A stretch of 64,000 bases of DNA from the IMG/VR virus record IMGVR_UViG_3300027833_000001, positions 101,128-165,127 of that record. One strand, written 5' to 3'. Positions 37,107 through 61,561 of the stretch are shown piece by piece. Source of the stretch: a virus. Under the pieces are notes generated by a model. The model searched no databases. It was not told the DNA's origin and saw only the letters and a list, made by a program, of their open reading frames with translations. Made by a program: the position numbers and the translations under genes. The first letter of the stretch is position 1; each line of letters begins with the position of its first letter.

Positions 37107-38773
37107 TAATATTTGAGAAGCTACGTTGGCAAAACTTTCTGTCAACTGGTAACGCATTTACTGAGATTGATTTTACACGTAGTCCTAATACTTTGATTGT
37201 TGGTGAGAATGGCAGTGGTAAATCTACCATGCTTGACGCATTATGTTTCGGACTGTTTAACAAACCATTTAGAGCGATCAGTAAAAATCAACTATTGAAC
37301 TCAGTCAATGGTAAAAACTTACTTGTTGAAGTTGAATTTAGAATTGGTACCAAAGACTATAAAGTTGTTCGTGGCGTTAAACCAAATTTATTTGAAATTT
37401 ATTGTGACGGTACTTTGGTAGACCAAGATGCAAATCTACGAGATACACAGAAATATCTTGAAGACTCTGTATTGAAATTAAACTATAAATCATTTACTCA
37501 AATTGTTATTTTGGGTAGTGCATCTTTCACACCATTTATGCAACTGCCATTAGGTAGTCGAAGAGAGATAATTGAAGACATTCTTGATATTCAAATCTTT
37601 ACTACCATGAATGTAGTATTGAAAGACAAGATGAACAAGATGAAAGAAACCATACGGGACATAGAATCTGATGTAGAAGTCTCTAAGCAGAAAGCACTAT
37701 TGCAAAAACAATATATTGAGAATCTTGAAAATGATAAAGCGATAAAAATTTCAGCAATAGAGAAACAGATAGAAGAAATACATACATCTATAGAAGAACA
37801 TGAAGCAGAAGTAACCAAGTTAAACACAGACAAAACATCACTCGGTAATCCAAAAGAAAGAATTAAGAAACTCAATTCCTTTAAAGAAAAGTTTTCTACT
37901 CAAATTGGTAAAGTAAATAGAGAGTTACAATTCTATGAAGACCATGATGATTGTCCTACTTGTAAGCAAGGCATACCACATGACTTTAAAGAAGATATTC
38001 TAAAAAAGAGAACTGATAAGATTACGGAACTGACAGATGCATCAACCCAGATAGAGGATGAATTTGTCACTTTGAATGCCACCTTAGAAACATTTATGGA
38101 ACTGTCTGAAAGTATCGCAGAGATTACTACGGAGATTATTACCAGCCAGAAGTATCTAACAAGATTGCAGTCTGATATATCTACAGCAAAAGAAAATGTT
38201 GCAGACATCACAGAAGAGAAAAAGAAGCTAAAAGATTTGGCTAAAATAGTGGTCCAGAATGAACACCAACGCTCAGAGAAGAGCGAGGAGAGCCATTACT
38301 TAACAGTCGCTAGTAGTTTACTCAAAGATACTGGTATAAAAACAAGAATCATTCGCCAATACTTACCAGCCATCAATAAACTAGTGAATAAGTTTTTGGC
38401 ATCAATGGATTTCTTTGTACAGTTTGATCTAGATGAAAAGTTTAATGAGACTATCAAGTCTCGCCATAGAGATAAGTTTAGTTATGCATCCTTCAGTGAA
38501 GGTGAGAAGCAACGTATTGATTTGGCATTGCTGTTTACATGGAGAACAATTGCTAAGATGAAAAATAGTGCCGCAACTAATCTACTGATACTTGATGAAG
38601 TATTCGACAGTAGTTTAGACAATAATGGCACAGACTATGTGATGACCTTACTAAATACTATAGGAGAAGAAGCAAACGTATTTGTAATCTCACATAAAGG
38701 CGACCAACTGTTTGACAAGTTTAGAGCAGTAATTAAATTTGAGAAGAAACAAAATTATTCGGTGATAGTATAA
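37103..38773 (+). CDS. gp46: Recombination endonuclease subunit gp46 (Rad50/SbcC-like)
   Basis: GENGSGKST, CPTC zinc hook, FSEGE, LDEVFD. Confidence 0.95.
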   Translation: MIIFEKLRWQNFLSTGNAFTEIDFTRSPNTLIVGENGSGKSTMLDALCFGLFNKPFRAISKNQLLNSVNGKNLLVEVEFRIGTKDYKVVRGVKPNLFEIYCDGTLVDQDANLRDTQKYLEDSVLKLNYKSFTQIVILGSASFTPFMQLPLGSRREIIEDILDIQIFTTMNVVLKDKMNKMKETIRDIESDVEVSKQKALLQKQYIENLENDKAIKISAIEKQIEEIHTSIEEHEAEVTKLNTDKTSLGNPKERIKKLNSFKEKFSTQIGKVNRELQFYEDHDDCPTCKQGIPHDFKEDILKKRTDKITELTDASTQIEDEFVTLNATLETFMELSESIAEITTEIITSQKYLTRLQSDISTAKENVADITEEKKKLKDLAKIVVQNEHQRSEKSEESHYLTVASSLLKDTGIKTRIIRQYLPAINKLVNKFLASMDFFVQFDLDEKFNETIKSRHRDKFSYASFSEGEKQRIDLALLFTWRTIAKMKNSAATNLLILDEVFDSSLDNNGTDYVMTLLNTIGEEANVFVISHKGDQLFDKFRAVIKFEKKQNYSVIV

Positions 38774-40316: not shown

Positions 40317-40374
40317 TATCAATGACTTAGCACCAAAGAAAAAGGTTGACTTTTGGTGCAACACCTGTCATAAT
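40317..40374 (+). promoter_or_regulatory. Sigma70-like early promoter with upstream IHF-consensus site
   Basis: TATCAATGACTTA 40317-40329; TTGACT 40346-40351, 17 nt spacer, CATAAT 40369-40374. Confidence 0.7.
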
Positions 40375-40402
40375 GTATATATAAATGAGAGAGAGCGTAT
40401 TA

Positions 40403-42745: not shown

Positions 42746-42813
42746 AATCAATAGCTTGGAATCGAAAATAATTGAAAAAAAGACTTGACATTAGTTTCGA
42801 TTCCAGCTATAAT
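42746..42813 (+). promoter_or_regulatory. Sigma70-like early promoter with IHF-consensus site and flanking inverted repeat
   Basis: AATCAATAGCTTG 42746-42758; TTGACA 42785-42790, 17 nt spacer, TATAAT 42808-42813. Confidence 0.75.
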
Positions 42814-42853
42814 GTATGTATAAATTGAGTTAACCCTTTTGAGAGAGGTCATT

Positions 42854-44062: not shown

Positions 44063-44336
44063 ACCAGACTACAAGTTTAGGGAAGATGAACTATTAGAGG
44101 AGTTCAAAGCCTACATAGATAAGACCTATCAGGGTCACTATGGTCAGGGTGGACTCCAATCTTCCGAAGTGATTGTAGATCGTGGTCATGGTATGGGGTT
44201 CTTCCTTGGTAATGTCGATAAGTATAATGGTCGATATGGCAAGAAAGGAACTCCAGTAGATCACCGAAAAGATATTGTTAAGATTATCCATTATGGTTTC
44301 TTGGCATTGTATGAACACGATAGGAAAAACAAGTGA
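44052..44336 (+). CDS. DUF3310-like hypothetical protein
   Basis: TY.GHY, FFLGNV.KY..RYGKK...D..KIIHY. Confidence 0.65.
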   Translation: MKNKPDYKFREDELLEEFKAYIDKTYQGHYGQGGLQSSEVIVDRGHGMGFFLGNVDKYNGRYGKKGTPVDHRKDIVKIIHYGFLALYEHDRKNK

Positions 44337-45451
44337 GTAGATTAGCCATTACAGGAATAGGTTTAGTAGACAACCTCGGGAACAACCCCGTGGATTGTTT
44401 TGCCGAATACCAAACAGGTGTTTTGGCGCCGCCAGTAAATGGTTCGTTTTCTGCCCAGAAAGATAATCTGACTGAAGTAAAAGCTCCGATGTACAATAGA
44501 CTATTGGACATTAATAAGCTATCACTTCACGCTGTATCCGATGCACTGAATCCTGATATAGAATTTTCAGATAATGTGTTTACTCTATTCTCTACACTAA
44601 CTGCCGGTAACACCACGTTCCAGGACTATGGTTCCGATCTTAGTGATGGAAAGAACAGAGTTAAACCTAAGCAATTGCTACAGGGCTGTAGGGACTTCAC
44701 TGCGGGATTGATAGCACAAACATATGGATTTACAGGTGGTGCTACCAGTATGAACTCTGCTTGTGCTACCAGTATATACCAGTTAGACTATGCATTTCAT
44801 CTAGCAAAACGATATGACTATGTGATATGCGGTGCTGGTGACTCTGCAAATAATTTATGGGATACAACTTTCTTTGAGAAGTTGGGTGCCCTAGGTTCAA
44901 AGTCTGCTCCATTTGATAATGATCGTGATGGAATAATCACAGGTGAAGGAGCAGGCTGTTTAATTTTGGAAGATGTAGATAAAGCTAAAGCTAGAGGAGC
45001 ATACATCTATGGGTACATCCATGAACCTGGTCTAGCAACTGATGGCGTCCATGCAAACTTTGTTAACCCTTCTGATTTTGGTTTGACTAAAGCAATGAAG
45101 ATTGCTACTGAAGGAATCGATCCAAATCATATAGCATTCGTAGCCGCTCATGCTACTGGTACTGAGGAAGGTGATGTTCTTGAATATGAAGCGATACAAA
45201 ATGTACTTCCGTATAAAGATGTTGTGGGATTCAAGTCTAAGCTAGGACACACCATGGCAGGTAATGGAATAATAGAATTAATTTATTCGTTAATGGCATT
45301 AAAATCTAATATAATTCCACTTACGCATATAAATAACACCGAGTGTAGATACGTTACTACAAAAACCCGTGCAACTGAATGTAAGTACGCACTCAAAAAC
45401 AGTTTAGGCTTTGGAGGGAAAGCCGCTTCTATCTTAATTGAGATAGATTAA
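44333..45451 (+). CDS. Beta-ketoacyl-ACP synthase (FabF/FabB-like)
   Basis: AITGIG, SACATS (catalytic Cys), PFD..RDG...GEGAG, AHATGT, KS.LGH, NSLGFGG. Confidence 0.88.
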   Translation: MSRLAITGIGLVDNLGNNPVDCFAEYQTGVLAPPVNGSFSAQKDNLTEVKAPMYNRLLDINKLSLHAVSDALNPDIEFSDNVFTLFSTLTAGNTTFQDYGSDLSDGKNRVKPKQLLQGCRDFTAGLIAQTYGFTGGATSMNSACATSIYQLDYAFHLAKRYDYVICGAGDSANNLWDTTFFEKLGALGSKSAPFDNDRDGIITGEGAGCLILEDVDKAKARGAYIYGYIHEPGLATDGVHANFVNPSDFGLTKAMKIATEGIDPNHIAFVAAHATGTEEGDVLEYEAIQNVLPYKDVVGFKSKLGHTMAGNGIIELIYSLMALKSNIIPLTHINNTECRYVTTKTRATECKYALKNSLGFGGKAASILIEID

Positions 45452-45457
45452 CCAGTT

Positions 45458-45530
45458 CCCCACCTGGGGCTCAGACTGTCACTTTCGTGACCTCTCTCTC
45501 CTCTCATAAATGGAAGTGACAGTCTGAGAT
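45458..45530 (+). ncRNA. Candidate structured RNA: long hairpin with CU-rich anti-RBS loop
   Basis: Perfect 15-bp stem CTCAGACTGTCACTT (45470-45484)/AAGTGACAGTCTGAG (45514-45528); loop TGACCTCTCTCTCCTCTCATAAA; small CCCC/GGGG hairpin 5' of it. Confidence 0.55.
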
Positions 45531-45532
45531 TT

Positions 45533-45540
45533 TATAAATA
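45533..45540 (+). promoter_or_regulatory. Late promoter TATAAATA
   Basis: Exact consensus upstream of ORF 45575. Confidence 0.7.
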
Positions 45541-45574
45541 GCTATTATACAAGTTAAATTTTTGGAGATAACCA

Positions 45575-45937
45575 ATGGCATACAGATACGCAATTAAATA
45601 TTCAAGACCTACCACTGACGATAATTGGTATGTCATGGACACCGATGTGGTTCTTAATGAAGCGGAGACCGCTAGAGAAACAGTTCTCAATGATTGGATT
45701 GATAGCAAAAAAACTGATGGTGATATTGCAGTAAGTTGGGAGTTCAGTGAAGATATGCTGGACTTTACATACATTCTAACATATGCAGATGAAGCCGCAT
45801 ATGATACCTTACAGGCAGAATGGGCAGTAATTAGAGATGCACAGTGTGATGGTATCGAACCTGAGACTGAAGCGAAGTTTGTTCAATTCAATACTGACAC
45901 CGGTAGTACGTATTCTGTTACAAAAGAAACAGTTTAA
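45575..45937 (+). CDS. Acidic hypothetical protein
   Basis: GGAG RBS, late promoter. Confidence 0.7.
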   Translation: MAYRYAIKYSRPTTDDNWYVMDTDVVLNEAETARETVLNDWIDSKKTDGDIAVSWEFSEDMLDFTYILTYADEAAYDTLQAEWAVIRDAQCDGIEPETEAKFVQFNTDTGSTYSVTKETV

Positions 45938-46673: not shown

Positions 46674-47291
46674 ATGAAAGGTAATATTGAAGTCGGGTTC
46701 AAAGTCCCGAATGTAACTTTCAATACTCGGGTACTGGATACAGATAGCGATGCAGACAACCCGTATGTATGGCAACCCGTAACAGTCGATTCAATGTTCA
46801 AAGAAAAACGAGTAGTACTGTTCAGTCTACCCGGAGCATTTACTCCAACGTGTTCAACATATCAACTACCACAATTCGAAGAGATGTACAATCAGTTCCG
46901 TGAAGTTGGCATTGATGAAATCTATTGTGTATCAGTGAATGACTCTTTTGTTATGAACAAATGGTCTAAGTGGTTAGATGTTAAGAATGTAAAAATGATT
47001 CCAGATGGCTCTGGTGTTCTTACACAAGCAATGAATATGCTTGTATCTAAAGACAACGTATCATTTGGACAAAGATCATGGAGATATGCTGTCATCTTAA
47101 ATGATGGTGTGGTAGAAAAAACATTTATTGAACCTGGTTTCGGTGACAATGTTGAAGAAGATCCATACGGTGAGACTGCACCACAAAACATATTTGACTA
47201 TGTAATATTTGATAGTCCGGTGCAAGCCCCAGCCAGAGAACTGCAACTTGATCTTTTTGATGGAGGAAAGACTGCGGAATCGTTTGGATAA
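46674..47291 (+). CDS. Peroxiredoxin (Prx5-like)
   Basis: LPGAFTPTCS, SVNDSFVM, RSWRYA. Confidence 0.9.
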   Translation: MKGNIEVGFKVPNVTFNTRVLDTDSDADNPYVWQPVTVDSMFKEKRVVLFSLPGAFTPTCSTYQLPQFEEMYNQFREVGIDEIYCVSVNDSFVMNKWSKWLDVKNVKMIPDGSGVLTQAMNMLVSKDNVSFGQRSWRYAVILNDGVVEKTFIEPGFGDNVEEDPYGETAPQNIFDYVIFDSPVQAPARELQLDLFDGGKTAESFG

Positions 47292-47311
47292 TATAATGAG
47301 AGGAGAGTAGA

Positions 47312-48241
47312 ATGGACGAATTTTTATTTGTCGAAAAGTATAGACCTAAAACCATTGATGAATGTGTGTTACCAAAATCGATTAAAAAAACATTTAATCA
47401 AATGGTCAGTAATGGTGAGATAACAAATCTACTGCTATGTGGTAGTGCTGGTACTGGCAAGACTACAGTAGCAAGAGCATTGTGTAATGAATTAGATTGT
47501 GATTATATTCTAATCAACGGCTCTGAAGAATCTGGTATCGATGTATTGCGTACCAAGATTAAGAAGTTTGCAAGTACAATGAGTTTCGAAAACAAAACTA
47601 AAGTGGTCATTTTAGATGAAGCAGACTATCTAAATCCAAACTCTACTCAACCAGCATTACGTGCATTCATTGAAGAGTTCTCTGCCAACTGCCGATTCAT
47701 CTTTACGTGTAATTTCAAAAACAGAATCATCGAACCCTTACATAGTAGAACTACTGTGGTCGAGTTCCGTTTGGACAAAGCTGACAAGCCAGAAATGGCA
47801 ATGCAATTTCACAAACGTATGAAAGATATTCTGGACATTGAAGAGATTAAATACTCTGATAAAGTTCTTGCTGAATTACTCAAGAAACATTTTCCAGACT
47901 ATCGTAGAGTTCTGAATGAACTTCAGCGGTACAGTATTGGTGGTGTTATTGATGAGGGTATACTGAGCAACTTGGCTGAGATGAATGTCAAGGGACTAAT
48001 CGATGCACTCAAAGATAAAGACTTCAAGAAAATGCGCCAGTGGGTAGCAAACAATGTTGACACAGATCCACAGGGCATCTATCGTAAAGTTTATGATGCG
48101 TTGATCGACAAAGTAAAACAAGTACCTCATTTGGTGCTGTTGATTGCAGACTATCAGTACAAAGCCGCATTCGTATCAGATCAAGAAATCAATCTTACCG
48201 CTTGCCTAACTGATATCATGGCTTCAGTTGACATAAAATGA
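47312..48241 (+). CDS. gp44: Clamp loader large subunit gp44
   Basis: EKYRP, GSAGTGKT, LDEAD, PLHSR. Confidence 0.95.
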   Translation: MDEFLFVEKYRPKTIDECVLPKSIKKTFNQMVSNGEITNLLLCGSAGTGKTTVARALCNELDCDYILINGSEESGIDVLRTKIKKFASTMSFENKTKVVILDEADYLNPNSTQPALRAFIEEFSANCRFIFTCNFKNRIIEPLHSRTTVVEFRLDKADKPEMAMQFHKRMKDILDIEEIKYSDKVLAELLKKHFPDYRRVLNELQRYSIGGVIDEGILSNLAEMNVKGLIDALKDKDFKKMRQWVANNVDTDPQGIYRKVYDALIDKVKQVPHLVLLIADYQYKAAFVSDQEINLTACLTDIMASVDIK

Positions 48242-50963: not shown

Positions 50964-51383
50964 ATGAGTGAAGACTTCTTTGCTATTGACTTTCCTGGCT
51001 ATGAACCCCTTGAAATCAAGCTAAAAAAATCCGATGACTTCCTAAAAGTAAGAGAGACACTCTCAAGAATTGGAGTTGCATCCAAAAAAGATAAAGTACT
51101 TTATCAATCTTGTCACATATTACACAAGCAAGGTAGATATTTTGTCACACACTTTAAGGAACTTTTTGCATTGGATGGTAAAGATGCAGACTTTACAGAG
51201 AACGATATCCAACGAAGAAATACTATTGCTAAGTTGCTGTCCGATTGGGGCTTAGTAGATGTAATTGAGGAAGATAGATTCTTTGAAGACTGTGCCCCTC
51301 TATCACAAATTAAGGTTTTAGCCTTTAAAGAAAAAGACGAATGGTCTTTAGTAACTAAGTATAATATTGGAAAGAAAAGATAA
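50964..51383 (+). CDS. regA: Translational repressor RegA
   Basis: DDFLKVRETLSRIG, LYQSCHILHKQGRY, HFKELF. Confidence 0.95.
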   Translation: MSEDFFAIDFPGYEPLEIKLKKSDDFLKVRETLSRIGVASKKDKVLYQSCHILHKQGRYFVTHFKELFALDGKDADFTENDIQRRNTIAKLLSDWGLVDVIEEDRFFEDCAPLSQIKVLAFKEKDEWSLVTKYNIGKKR

Positions 51384-61502: not shown

Positions 61503-61530
61503 TTGACATTACCCTCAATCCTGCTATAAT
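61503..61530 (+). promoter_or_regulatory. Sigma70-like early promoter
   Basis: TTGACA-16-TATAAT with TGn extension. Confidence 0.75.
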
Positions 61531-61561
61531 ACTAGTATAGTTAATGAGAGAGGAAAGATTC

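Follow-up and report, generated by a model that had tools for sequence, protein, structure and literature searches.

What is the function of the long hairpin that follows a fabF-like gene in the genome of a marine virus, and what does its exposed, CU-rich loop recognize? The element is placed at positions 45,458–45,530 of the window, i.e., the whole stretch of 64,000 nucleotides that was analysed (positions 101,128–165,127 of record IMGVR_UViG_3300027833_000001), which lies at the end of an IMG/VR virus record; the record is 165,127 bp long, bears terminal repeats and has a G+C content of 38%. A preliminary description, prepared from the sequence alone, had considered it a candidate small RNA (sRNA) able to pair with the ribosome-binding sites (RBSs) of several phage messenger RNAs (mRNAs) and to shut off early translation. 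Comparative analyses indicated that the hairpin is a structured RNA of the plus strand, conserved and with a loop that is itself under strong selection for its sequence, and that it very probably corresponds to a selected structured RNA of a family of marine T4-like phages whose type example is found in Methylophilales phage Melnitz. A mode of action by pairing with GA-rich leaders would have about an even chance of being correct.

The perfect 15-bp stem reported in the preliminary description (45470–45484 with 45514–45528) was borne out, and additional U·G, C-G, G·U and U-A pairs lengthened it to 19 bp (45470–45488 with 45510–45528) rather than to the 18 bp initially proposed. The 3′ untranslated region (3′UTR) of the fabF-like gene opens with CCAGUUCCCC directly after the stop codon and, 5′ of the main hairpin, a small one with the arrangement CCCC-ACCU-GGGG is found at 45458–45469. 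The parts of the element, with the arms taken from the minimum-free-energy (MFE) fold, are the following:

45452–45469, plus strand: start of the 3′UTR, CCAGUUCCCC, together with the small GC hairpin of 3–4 bp (45458–45469), which is part of the MFE fold.
45470–45488, plus strand: 5′ arm of the main hairpin, with compensatory changes in the related contigs L002, L017 and L026.
45489–45509, plus strand: exposed CU-rich loop of 21 nt, GACCUCUCUCUCCUCUCAUAA, alignable with the core of the family loops, ACCUCUCUCUC...CUCUCA.
45510–45528, plus strand: 3′ arm of the main hairpin, also with compensatory changes.
45529–45533, plus strand: AUUUU tract abutting the stem, resembling the 3′ end of an intrinsic terminator, with U4–U5 kept in all versions.

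The plus-strand RNA was predicted to fold at −38.6 kcal/mol (z = −5.3), a value that none of 200 shuffles equalled, whereas the minus-strand RNA reached a z of only −2.0. A repeat check revealed no second copy of the stem or of the loop in the window, and no Rfam 15 family was recovered, either by a gathering-threshold search of the whole window or at E up to 10 on 45380–45620. The hairpin at 45470–45528 was also skipped by the automatic terminator scan, because this allows loops of 3–8 nt only. When it was considered as a terminator, the stem and the conserved U4–5 tract were present, the loop was far above the usual size, and a metatranscriptome contig crossed the U-tract. This contig, an exact match over 45510–45736, came from a single metatranscriptome (Logan contigs; DNA carry-over possible). 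Contigs from a DNA run break at 45495/45509, the same place as the metatranscriptome contig, so that the break in the hairpin loop (45495–45510) is technical, a drop-out of assembly or of sequencing located at the CU repeat or at the hairpin. It gives no information on start site, strand or level, nor do the uncovered parts, although such a break could be mistaken for a transcript end.

The conservation of the element was assessed in close relatives, from which four further versions of the intergenic region were recovered by protein-guided and pattern-guided searches of viral and metagenome contigs. In all five versions, the 25 of 25 nucleotides at 45487–45511 were identical, with the flanking proteins being only 64–80% identical and the spacer 3′ of the hairpin having diverged freely. 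In contig L026, whose FabF is 64% identical, 9 of the 17 stem pairs differed in both nucleotides and 2 in only one, with pairing preserved throughout; L002-type contigs presented a C-G to A-U replacement, and L017-type contigs two double changes, a U·G to C-G replacement and one bulged A. The stem covariation that the preliminary description had named as a check on its proposal was, in this way, found, with nine compensatory double changes relative to L026. The sequence CCAGTTCCCC was identical in 5/5 versions, and the small hairpin preserved its CCC/GGG stem with a variable loop (ACCT or TAGT). Exact and partly masked loop scans of viral and metagenome contigs retrieved only the same small clade plus chance matches that fell inside coding regions (L013, L031, L035 and L036). 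In the clade represented by L027 and L028, no hairpin was found 3′ of fabF, these contigs being incomplete and a stand-alone copy elsewhere being possible.

The stem of L026 carries three G·U pairs and that of the window two, which would become A·C mismatches on the opposite strand; therefore, the selected structure is that of a plus-strand RNA and not that of a DNA cruciform or a minus-strand RNA. This observation told against the other possibility raised in the preliminary description, a functional minus strand whose GA-rich loop would serve as a decoy of an RBS or for RegA. On that strand the loop sequence does resemble that of an early leader, a weak promoter-like site (9/12) is present at 45557–45529, and a RegA homologue (Translat_reg, PF01818; 156.9 bits) is encoded at 51009–51371 of the window, coexisting with the candidate RNA regulator. 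Nevertheless, the mismatches, which would extend to 35 G·U or U·G cells counted over the family alignment, the poorer fold of this strand and the plus orientation of the neighbouring genes, the U-tract and the family promoters made a minus-strand function scarcely credible.

The relationship of the hairpin with a wider group of RNAs emerged from Melnitz, in which a complete small transcription unit was met at MZ577097.1 38511–38625 while GAGAGAG motifs were being looked for. It is composed of a TTGACT-17-TATGAT promoter, a 15-bp hairpin (38546–38600, the type example) with a 25-nt loop, ACCUCUCUCUCGACUUUCUCUCUCA, and a canonical terminator. A scan of IMG/VR viral contigs for the shared loop core revealed 51 loci with a promoter, a hairpin and either a terminator or a transfer RNA (tRNA), in conserved synteny, preceded by genes for an endonuclease, a hypothetical protein and a GH108 lysozyme and followed by a conserved gene of 137 amino acids. 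The family promoter is of the sigma70 type and ends 5–7 nt before the stem, which measures 14–16 bp or more, while the loop, of 21–32 nt, presents the arrangement ACCUCUCUCUC-spacer-CUCUCUCA, starting with ACCUCUCUCUC and ending with CUCUCA. Members are single copy per genome and correspond to plus-strand RNAs with G·U pairs; their loop is invariant among phages with fully diverged stems, and the number of CU repeats shifts by 2-nt steps with the motif kept (contigs L048 and L109). When 27 distinct members were aligned on the basis of the model, pairing was found in 96.5% of cells and double changes in 14 of the 15 pairs, while none of 500 shuffles reached any of these measures and slid controls were 40–60% paired; this alignment was fitted to the model, which favours structure, and the margin was large. 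Rfam searches of eight family loci gave only tRNA and transfer-messenger RNA (tmRNA) matches, none of them at the hairpin, and no description of the CU-loop RNA was found in the pelagiphage and Melnitz literature, the Melnitz paper making no mention of it. Within what was searched, phages were the only hosts of the family.

Other observations were made at these loci. The GenBank coding sequence MelnitzEXVC044M_66 (59 amino acids, hypothetical) spans the sRNA unit and enters the next promoter (L037:1515–1640), and most likely represents the sRNA gene annotated by mistake as a protein. Small open reading frames (ORFs) over the hairpin (19 amino acids on the minus strand, 10 on the plus strand, and an ATG at the 5′ end of the stand-alone members) were discarded, since indels of 1–2 nt in relatives break all frames. 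In L045, L049 and L058 (e.g., L058:3719–3789), a tRNA gene within ~10 nt of the CU-loop hairpin replaces the terminator, and an RNA so placed would be released as the tRNA 5′ leader by RNase P. Moreover, permuted tmRNA genes (two-piece, alphaproteobacterial-type) were found near the sRNA locus in two related contigs (L081:3382–3742 and L100:6932–7128), and such a tmRNA has reportedly been published for Melnitz too.

Membership of the window's element was evaluated with a covariance model, R2, which had an explicit structure and derived from no more than six sequences of the Melnitz and L058 types, the window's clade being excluded; a previous model, R1, was discarded because the automatic RNAalifold structure obtained on a MAFFT alignment was wrong (3 pairs). 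The hairpin was recognized at 45475–45523 with 23.3 bits as the sole match in the window (E = 0.003) and in the whole genome (E = 0.008), these E-values being rough, and it was also the sole match in G001, a related 116-kb contig, while the positive control, Melnitz, scored 85.8 bits. At E up to 1, the model retrieved nothing in Pelagibacter phage HTVC008M, three cyanophages and the marine single-virus genome AG-345-E15, a negative result in which the fast filter may have missed divergent copies, and 556 kb of prokaryote DNA, chosen beforehand for containing the loop pattern (80 loci), gave no match of full length. The window's hairpin shares with the Melnitz-type RNAs a long covarying stem, here of 17–19 bp, with plus-strand G·U pairs, and a loop, here of 21 nt, that reads G-ACCUCUCUCUC-CUCUCA-UAA and thus starts and ends as those of the family do. 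The closest loops are that of L100, ACCUCUCUCUCCUCUCUCAAUCUA, and that of L076, almost identical to it, which belong to phages whose proteins are most like those of this genome and which carry the RNA at the canonical locus.

In contrast to these relatives, the window copy lies 3′ of fabF and not between the GH108 lysozyme and 137-amino-acid genes. No promoter-like site was found upstream of 45470, and the hairpin is followed by U4 and then by TATAAATA, with neither a separate downstream terminator hairpin nor a tRNA. It also differs by the extra small 5′ hairpin and by a loop devoid of the central spacer. The G-rich 5′ arm that characterizes the family is missing from its stem, which, together with the rough E-values, counts against kinship. 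Homologues of the genes that flank the canonical locus were located at ~27–29 kb and 40.9 kb of the genome, where R2 gave no match; those of the endonuclease and the 137-amino-acid protein were present, and the GH108 lysozyme was not found in the genome by tblastn. Because it is without promoter, separate terminator, syntenic place and G-rich 5′ arm, the window copy can be read as a relocated, divergent family member that would now double as the terminator hairpin of the cobS-fabF operon, and the genome appears to have lost the canonical stand-alone copy and to keep only the terminator-embedded one. The modest E-value also leaves room for convergence, by which the same loop may have arisen independently of kinship. 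The terminator-embedded, promoterless form is a new element of the CU-loop family, which is itself uncatalogued.

The terminator position raised the question of whether the hairpin acts only in cis, as terminator and 3′ stabilizer of the cobS-fabF mRNA, with a loop that would be a relic of an ancestral sRNA. The element indeed abuts the stop codon, with a stable stem, a kept U4–5 tract and TATAAATA right behind. However, terminators need no 21-nt loop, and a relic loop would drift, whereas here the 25 fixed nucleotides persisted while stem and downstream spacer changed freely; in addition, this is the one copy kept after the apparent loss of the canonical one. Such a purely structural role is therefore regarded as unlikely. 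In fact, the occurrence of the same loop in a stand-alone early gene and in an operon terminator argues that the loop sequence is the functional part, and since its core is shared with the wider phage sRNA family, a functional RNA acting via its loop is well founded.

Another cis-acting role could involve the gene located immediately downstream, which is preceded by a late-promoter motif:

45533–45540, plus strand: TATAAATA, late-promoter motif for the gene of 120 amino acids (45575–45937), kept in all versions.

This octamer, which we take to be the same as the late-promoter consensus of T4, overlaps the last part of the U-tract, is placed 35 nt 5′ of the next start codon, and occurs at most 60 nt upstream of 19 genes in the genome. 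In T4, the genes e, soc, 49 and I-TevI have their RBS sequestered in early transcripts. By analogy, the hairpin could hide the RBS of the 120-amino-acid gene in early read-through transcripts, while late ones starting from TATAAATA would be free of the hairpin and translated, an arrangement compatible with the position of the motif between hairpin and RBS and with the metatranscriptome contig that bridges the 3′ arm and this gene. The pairing of the loop with the downstream leader is, however, weak (−6 to −10 kcal/mol) and involves other nucleotides in each relative; the downstream Shine-Dalgarno (SD) sequence varies (GGAGA, GGAGU, GGAGC, AAGGAAA) and the loop is fixed, and stand-alone family members have their own terminator. 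Consequently, sequestration in cis seemed very improbable.

Regarding the partners of the loop, the preliminary description had quoted four leaders complementary to it, and all of the four matches proved to be exact:

42841–42851, plus strand: candidate target in the cobS-like leader GAGAGAGGUCA of the element's own operon, with the match GAGAGAGGTCA of 11 nt.
47296–47307, plus strand: candidate target in the gp44 clamp-loader leader, ATGAGAGGAGAG, 12 nt, not conserved.
40387–40395, plus strand: candidate target in the leader of the cobT-like gene of 786 amino acids, GAGAGAGAG, 9 nt.
61546–61553, plus strand: candidate target in the early-promoter leader GAGAGAGG of ORF 61562, 8 nt.

Three of these leaders are preceded by sigma70-like promoters, as had been claimed, gp44 being the exception. 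In close relatives, the cobS leader is kept as GAGAGAGGTC and retains GAGAGAGGUC, and the L027/L028 clade has it as GAGAGAGG; its predicted duplex with the loop amounts to −21.6 kcal/mol versus −10.4 with a 16S tail, while the cobT-like leader presents GAGAGAGG at the matching place in G001 and is not kept in L027/L028. Across the 165-kb genome, 11 of 208 predicted leaders showed perfect complementarity of at least 8 nt, including a 12-nt match outside the window, against a mean of 2.6 leaders for shuffled loops of the same composition, of which 5/1000 reached 11 (p about 0.005). Similarly, duplexes of −14 kcal/mol or stronger were predicted for 21 leaders compared with 8.2 ± 4.4 for shuffles (0/60), and the match rate was 5.3% of leaders versus 0.2% of interior coding windows. 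Complementarity in this genome is, thus, above the composition-matched background. The caution of the preliminary description that short matches to a low-complexity loop could be due to chance was answered in part by the enrichment over shuffles, although much of the signal is still a CU repeat meeting a GA repeat.

Early-promoter leaders paired better with the loop than other leaders did (p = 0.0012 here; 0.028 in Melnitz). The leaders complementary to the loop belong to a recurrent early cassette formed by TTGACA-N17-TATAAT, 10–28 nt, (A/U)UGAGAGAGG, 4–8 nt and ATG, whose two leader ends are complementary to the loop, the 5′ half of which matches ...GAGAGGU and the 3′ half (A/U)UGAGA.... Copies of the cassette in the form (A/T)TGAGAGAGG were observed in the window at 40346–40395, 42785–42851 and 61503–61553 and in G000 at 29.7, 31.3, 35.6, 36.0 and 40.5 kb; Melnitz and other family loci carry a looser form, and two near-identical copies of a similar promoter-leader cassette are found at Melnitz 31702 and 73149. 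This cassette looks like a mobile or strongly homogenized regulatory module. Otherwise, most of the chance matches to the CU-loop pattern in unrelated phage contigs (e.g., L052, L053, L056, L074, L083, L098, L112, and L117) were opposite-strand (GA)n-GGT leaders placed 5–9 nt before start codons, which made them unusable as controls for GA leaders; GA-repeat SD leaders are widespread in phages well beyond the CU-loop family.

Several results weigh against pairing with the leaders as the role of the loop. The 12-nt gp44 match is absent in relatives with an identical loop, which have a different leader and an extra ORF of 58 amino acids, and the leaders of Melnitz showed no enrichment relative to shuffled loops (p = 0.26–0.32). 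The advantage of the early leaders was just as large with a generic anti-SD tail of 16S, so that the excess specific to the loop did not reach significance (p = 0.12 and 0.09). Unrelated phages also commonly have GA-repeat leaders, GAGAGAGR is as common in HTVC008M and in the cyanophages where R2 found no copy, and the GAGAGAGG leader of cobS exists in L027/L028, whose incomplete contigs are devoid of the hairpin 3′ of fabF. The contig over 45510–45736, if derived from RNA, means that transcripts run past the U-tract. Furthermore, the invariance of the loop over very divergent phages fits one partner, either a protein or a host RNA, at least equally well.

A single conserved host or phage protein, which the loop would titrate or recruit in place of pairing with mRNAs, is accordingly a possible partner, albeit an improbable one. 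With (C/A/G)ACCUC and a CU run behind it, the loop is similar to the 3′ tail of 16S, GAUCACCUCCUU, which is single-stranded, and candidates are the ribosomal protein S1, Era or another factor with a KH domain, or a phage regulator; S1 binds pyrimidine-rich RNA and Era binds the 16S tail. A protein site would explain a loop that stays the same while stems fully diverge and while the number of CU repeats varies in 2-nt steps with retention of the motif, and would also agree with the absence of leader enrichment in Melnitz. Nevertheless, no candidate protein co-varies with the RNA; the endonuclease and the 137-amino-acid neighbours occur in this genome too, the lysozyme not being recovered by tblastn, and the match of the two loop halves to both ends of the early-leader consensus would be needless for a protein site. 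On the other hand, the same pairing could be directed to host mRNAs or other host RNAs with GA-rich or GGAGG RBSs, resulting in host shut-off. CCUCU could pair with GGAGG via one G·U, and the invariance of the loop among phages would be compatible with this, but none of the 80 prokaryote loci with the loop pattern was a member of the hairpin family, and the leader enrichment was found within the phage genome itself, which leaves host targets a rather unlikely explanation.

If the pairing with phage leaders is preferred, the RNA would be freed by termination at the U-tract, with possible trimming 5′ of the small hairpin, as in other 3′UTR-derived sRNAs; the location at the 3′ end of the fabF mRNA fits the type of CpxQ, SroC and CcsR, and its release is predicted. 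The loop would then pair with purine-rich (U)GAGAGAGG(U) leaders, which account for almost all of the short 5′UTR in early genes close to their promoter; the cobS leader, in the operon of the element itself, is one of them. Such pairing would cover the SD site, and the translation of early genes would fall as the RNA accumulates. From the shut-off of early translation put forward in the preliminary description, the conserved loop RNA at the 3′ end of the cobS-fabF operon was retained, while the repression of the leaders would be conjectural. More tentatively, and with a probability that we place well short of even, a single, abundant hairpin RNA might constitute, in a large group of abundant marine myophages, an RNA counterpart of T4 RegA and RegB, with an anti-SD-mimicking loop that would close early leaders as a class and, in this clade, with the antisense to the operon's own leader sitting in the operon terminator. 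In that case, the 3′ end of each cobS-fabF transcript would be antisense to the leader of the same transcript, providing a built-in negative feedback or an intra-mRNA pairing between 5′ and 3′ ends.

To our knowledge, lytic phages have yielded very few regulatory RNAs. None was found in the literature for the T4-like phages that infect streamlined marine heterotrophs (hosts of the SAR11 and OM43 types), and these phages are among the most abundant viruses of the ocean. The CU-loop family is widespread and strongly covarying, is conserved only in its loop, is absent from Rfam and is annotated as a protein gene in Melnitz, which, together with the OM43 strain H5P1, provides a cultured system for this RNA. 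The terminator-embedded copy represents a natural experiment on the origin of 3′UTR-derived sRNAs and, if the anti-leader function is true, the family would provide an RNA-based temporal switch of phage gene expression.

Some known systems resemble the proposed one. In T4, the proteins RegA and RegB close early mRNAs post-transcriptionally at the RBS, an outcome equal to that proposed for the CU-loop RNA, but reached by proteins. The loops of the c4 antisense RNA of phages P1 and P7 pair with phage mRNA sites and block their translation; c4, however, directs two short specific loops against two sites in one operon, whereas here a low-complexity loop would face a leader class. The comparison with P1 C4 made in the preliminary description holds as an analogy only, as the Rfam C4 model gave no match at E up to 10 on 45380–45620. 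The occlusion of leaders as proposed here would be the mode known from C/U-rich-loop sRNAs, such as the cuckoo/CcsR RNAs and RNAIII, whose C/U-rich anti-SD loops occlude RBSs (PMC4615179). With the alphaproteobacterial cuckoo/CcsR1–4/alpha-r14 RNAs, the element shares pyrimidine-rich, anti-SD-like hairpin loops in which only the loop motif is conserved and the stems are highly variable, with many compensatory changes (PMC4615179, PMC8034643). The loci of these RNAs switch UTR arrangements (PMC4615179, PMC8034643), the CcsR RNAs being cut from an mRNA 3′UTR (PMC8034643). Cuckoo RNAs are chromosomal and carry 2–4 adjacent hairpins with the motif CCUCCUCCC (PMC4615179), while in the phage element this motif is absent, a single hairpin with a CU repeat is present, and no Rfam match was obtained. 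RNAIII and the Rsa RNAs of S. aureus also pair C-rich loops, including that of a terminator hairpin, with the RBSs of several mRNAs (PMC4615179), but RNAIII has a UCCC motif and a multi-hairpin structure of 514 nt, is not phage-encoded and is unrelated in sequence. The element is, thus, a member of neither cuckoo/CcsR, RNAIII nor P1 C4, given the differences in motifs, hairpin number and Rfam models.

The genome that harbors the element is that of a T4-like marine myophage, whose clamp loader is ~60% identical to those of Melnitz and HTVC008M; a DNA search of GenBank phages returned no relative of the hairpin region. RegB was searched for without any match here or in the control genomes, a result that, for want of a positive control, is uninformative. 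Every gene around the hairpin is on the plus strand, namely those for a ClpP-like protein and the cobT-like protein, the cobS operon, the 120-amino-acid ORF, gp45, peroxiredoxin and gp44. The operon is delimited by two features:

42785–42813, plus strand: sigma70-type promoter TTGACA-17-TATAAT (12/12) of the cobS-DUF3310-fabF operon.
44333–45451, plus strand: fabF-like ketosynthase, the final gene of the operon, with the N and C Pfam ketoacyl-synt domains and the stop codon at 45449–45451.

This promoter is followed, in this order, by the genes for a cobS/MoxR-type ATPase, a DUF3310 protein and the fabF-like ketosynthase. The latter presents a graded series of phage homologues, from 79% down to ~30% identity, and in contig L027 its homologue is preceded by a glycosyltransferase gene and followed on the 3′ side by a gene with a weak fatty-acid-desaturase Pfam match, a neighbourhood that suggests a lipid-modifying auxiliary module in marine myophages. 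The 120-amino-acid ORF has no Pfam domain and was represented by only four protein clusters among 5.8 billion sequences, occurring also in contigs of RNA libraries. Further downstream, a peroxiredoxin gene (Redoxin/AhpC-TSA; 46674–47291) forms an insertion that separates the gene of the sliding clamp, gp45, from that of the clamp loader, gp44, a junction at which it was observed in all relatives seen, including the L027/L028 clade. The additional ORF of 58 amino acids that relatives carry between peroxiredoxin and gp44 (L022:4715–4913) is absent from the corresponding interval of the window (47291–47312), and the GA-rich gp44 leader of the window sits at this same junction.

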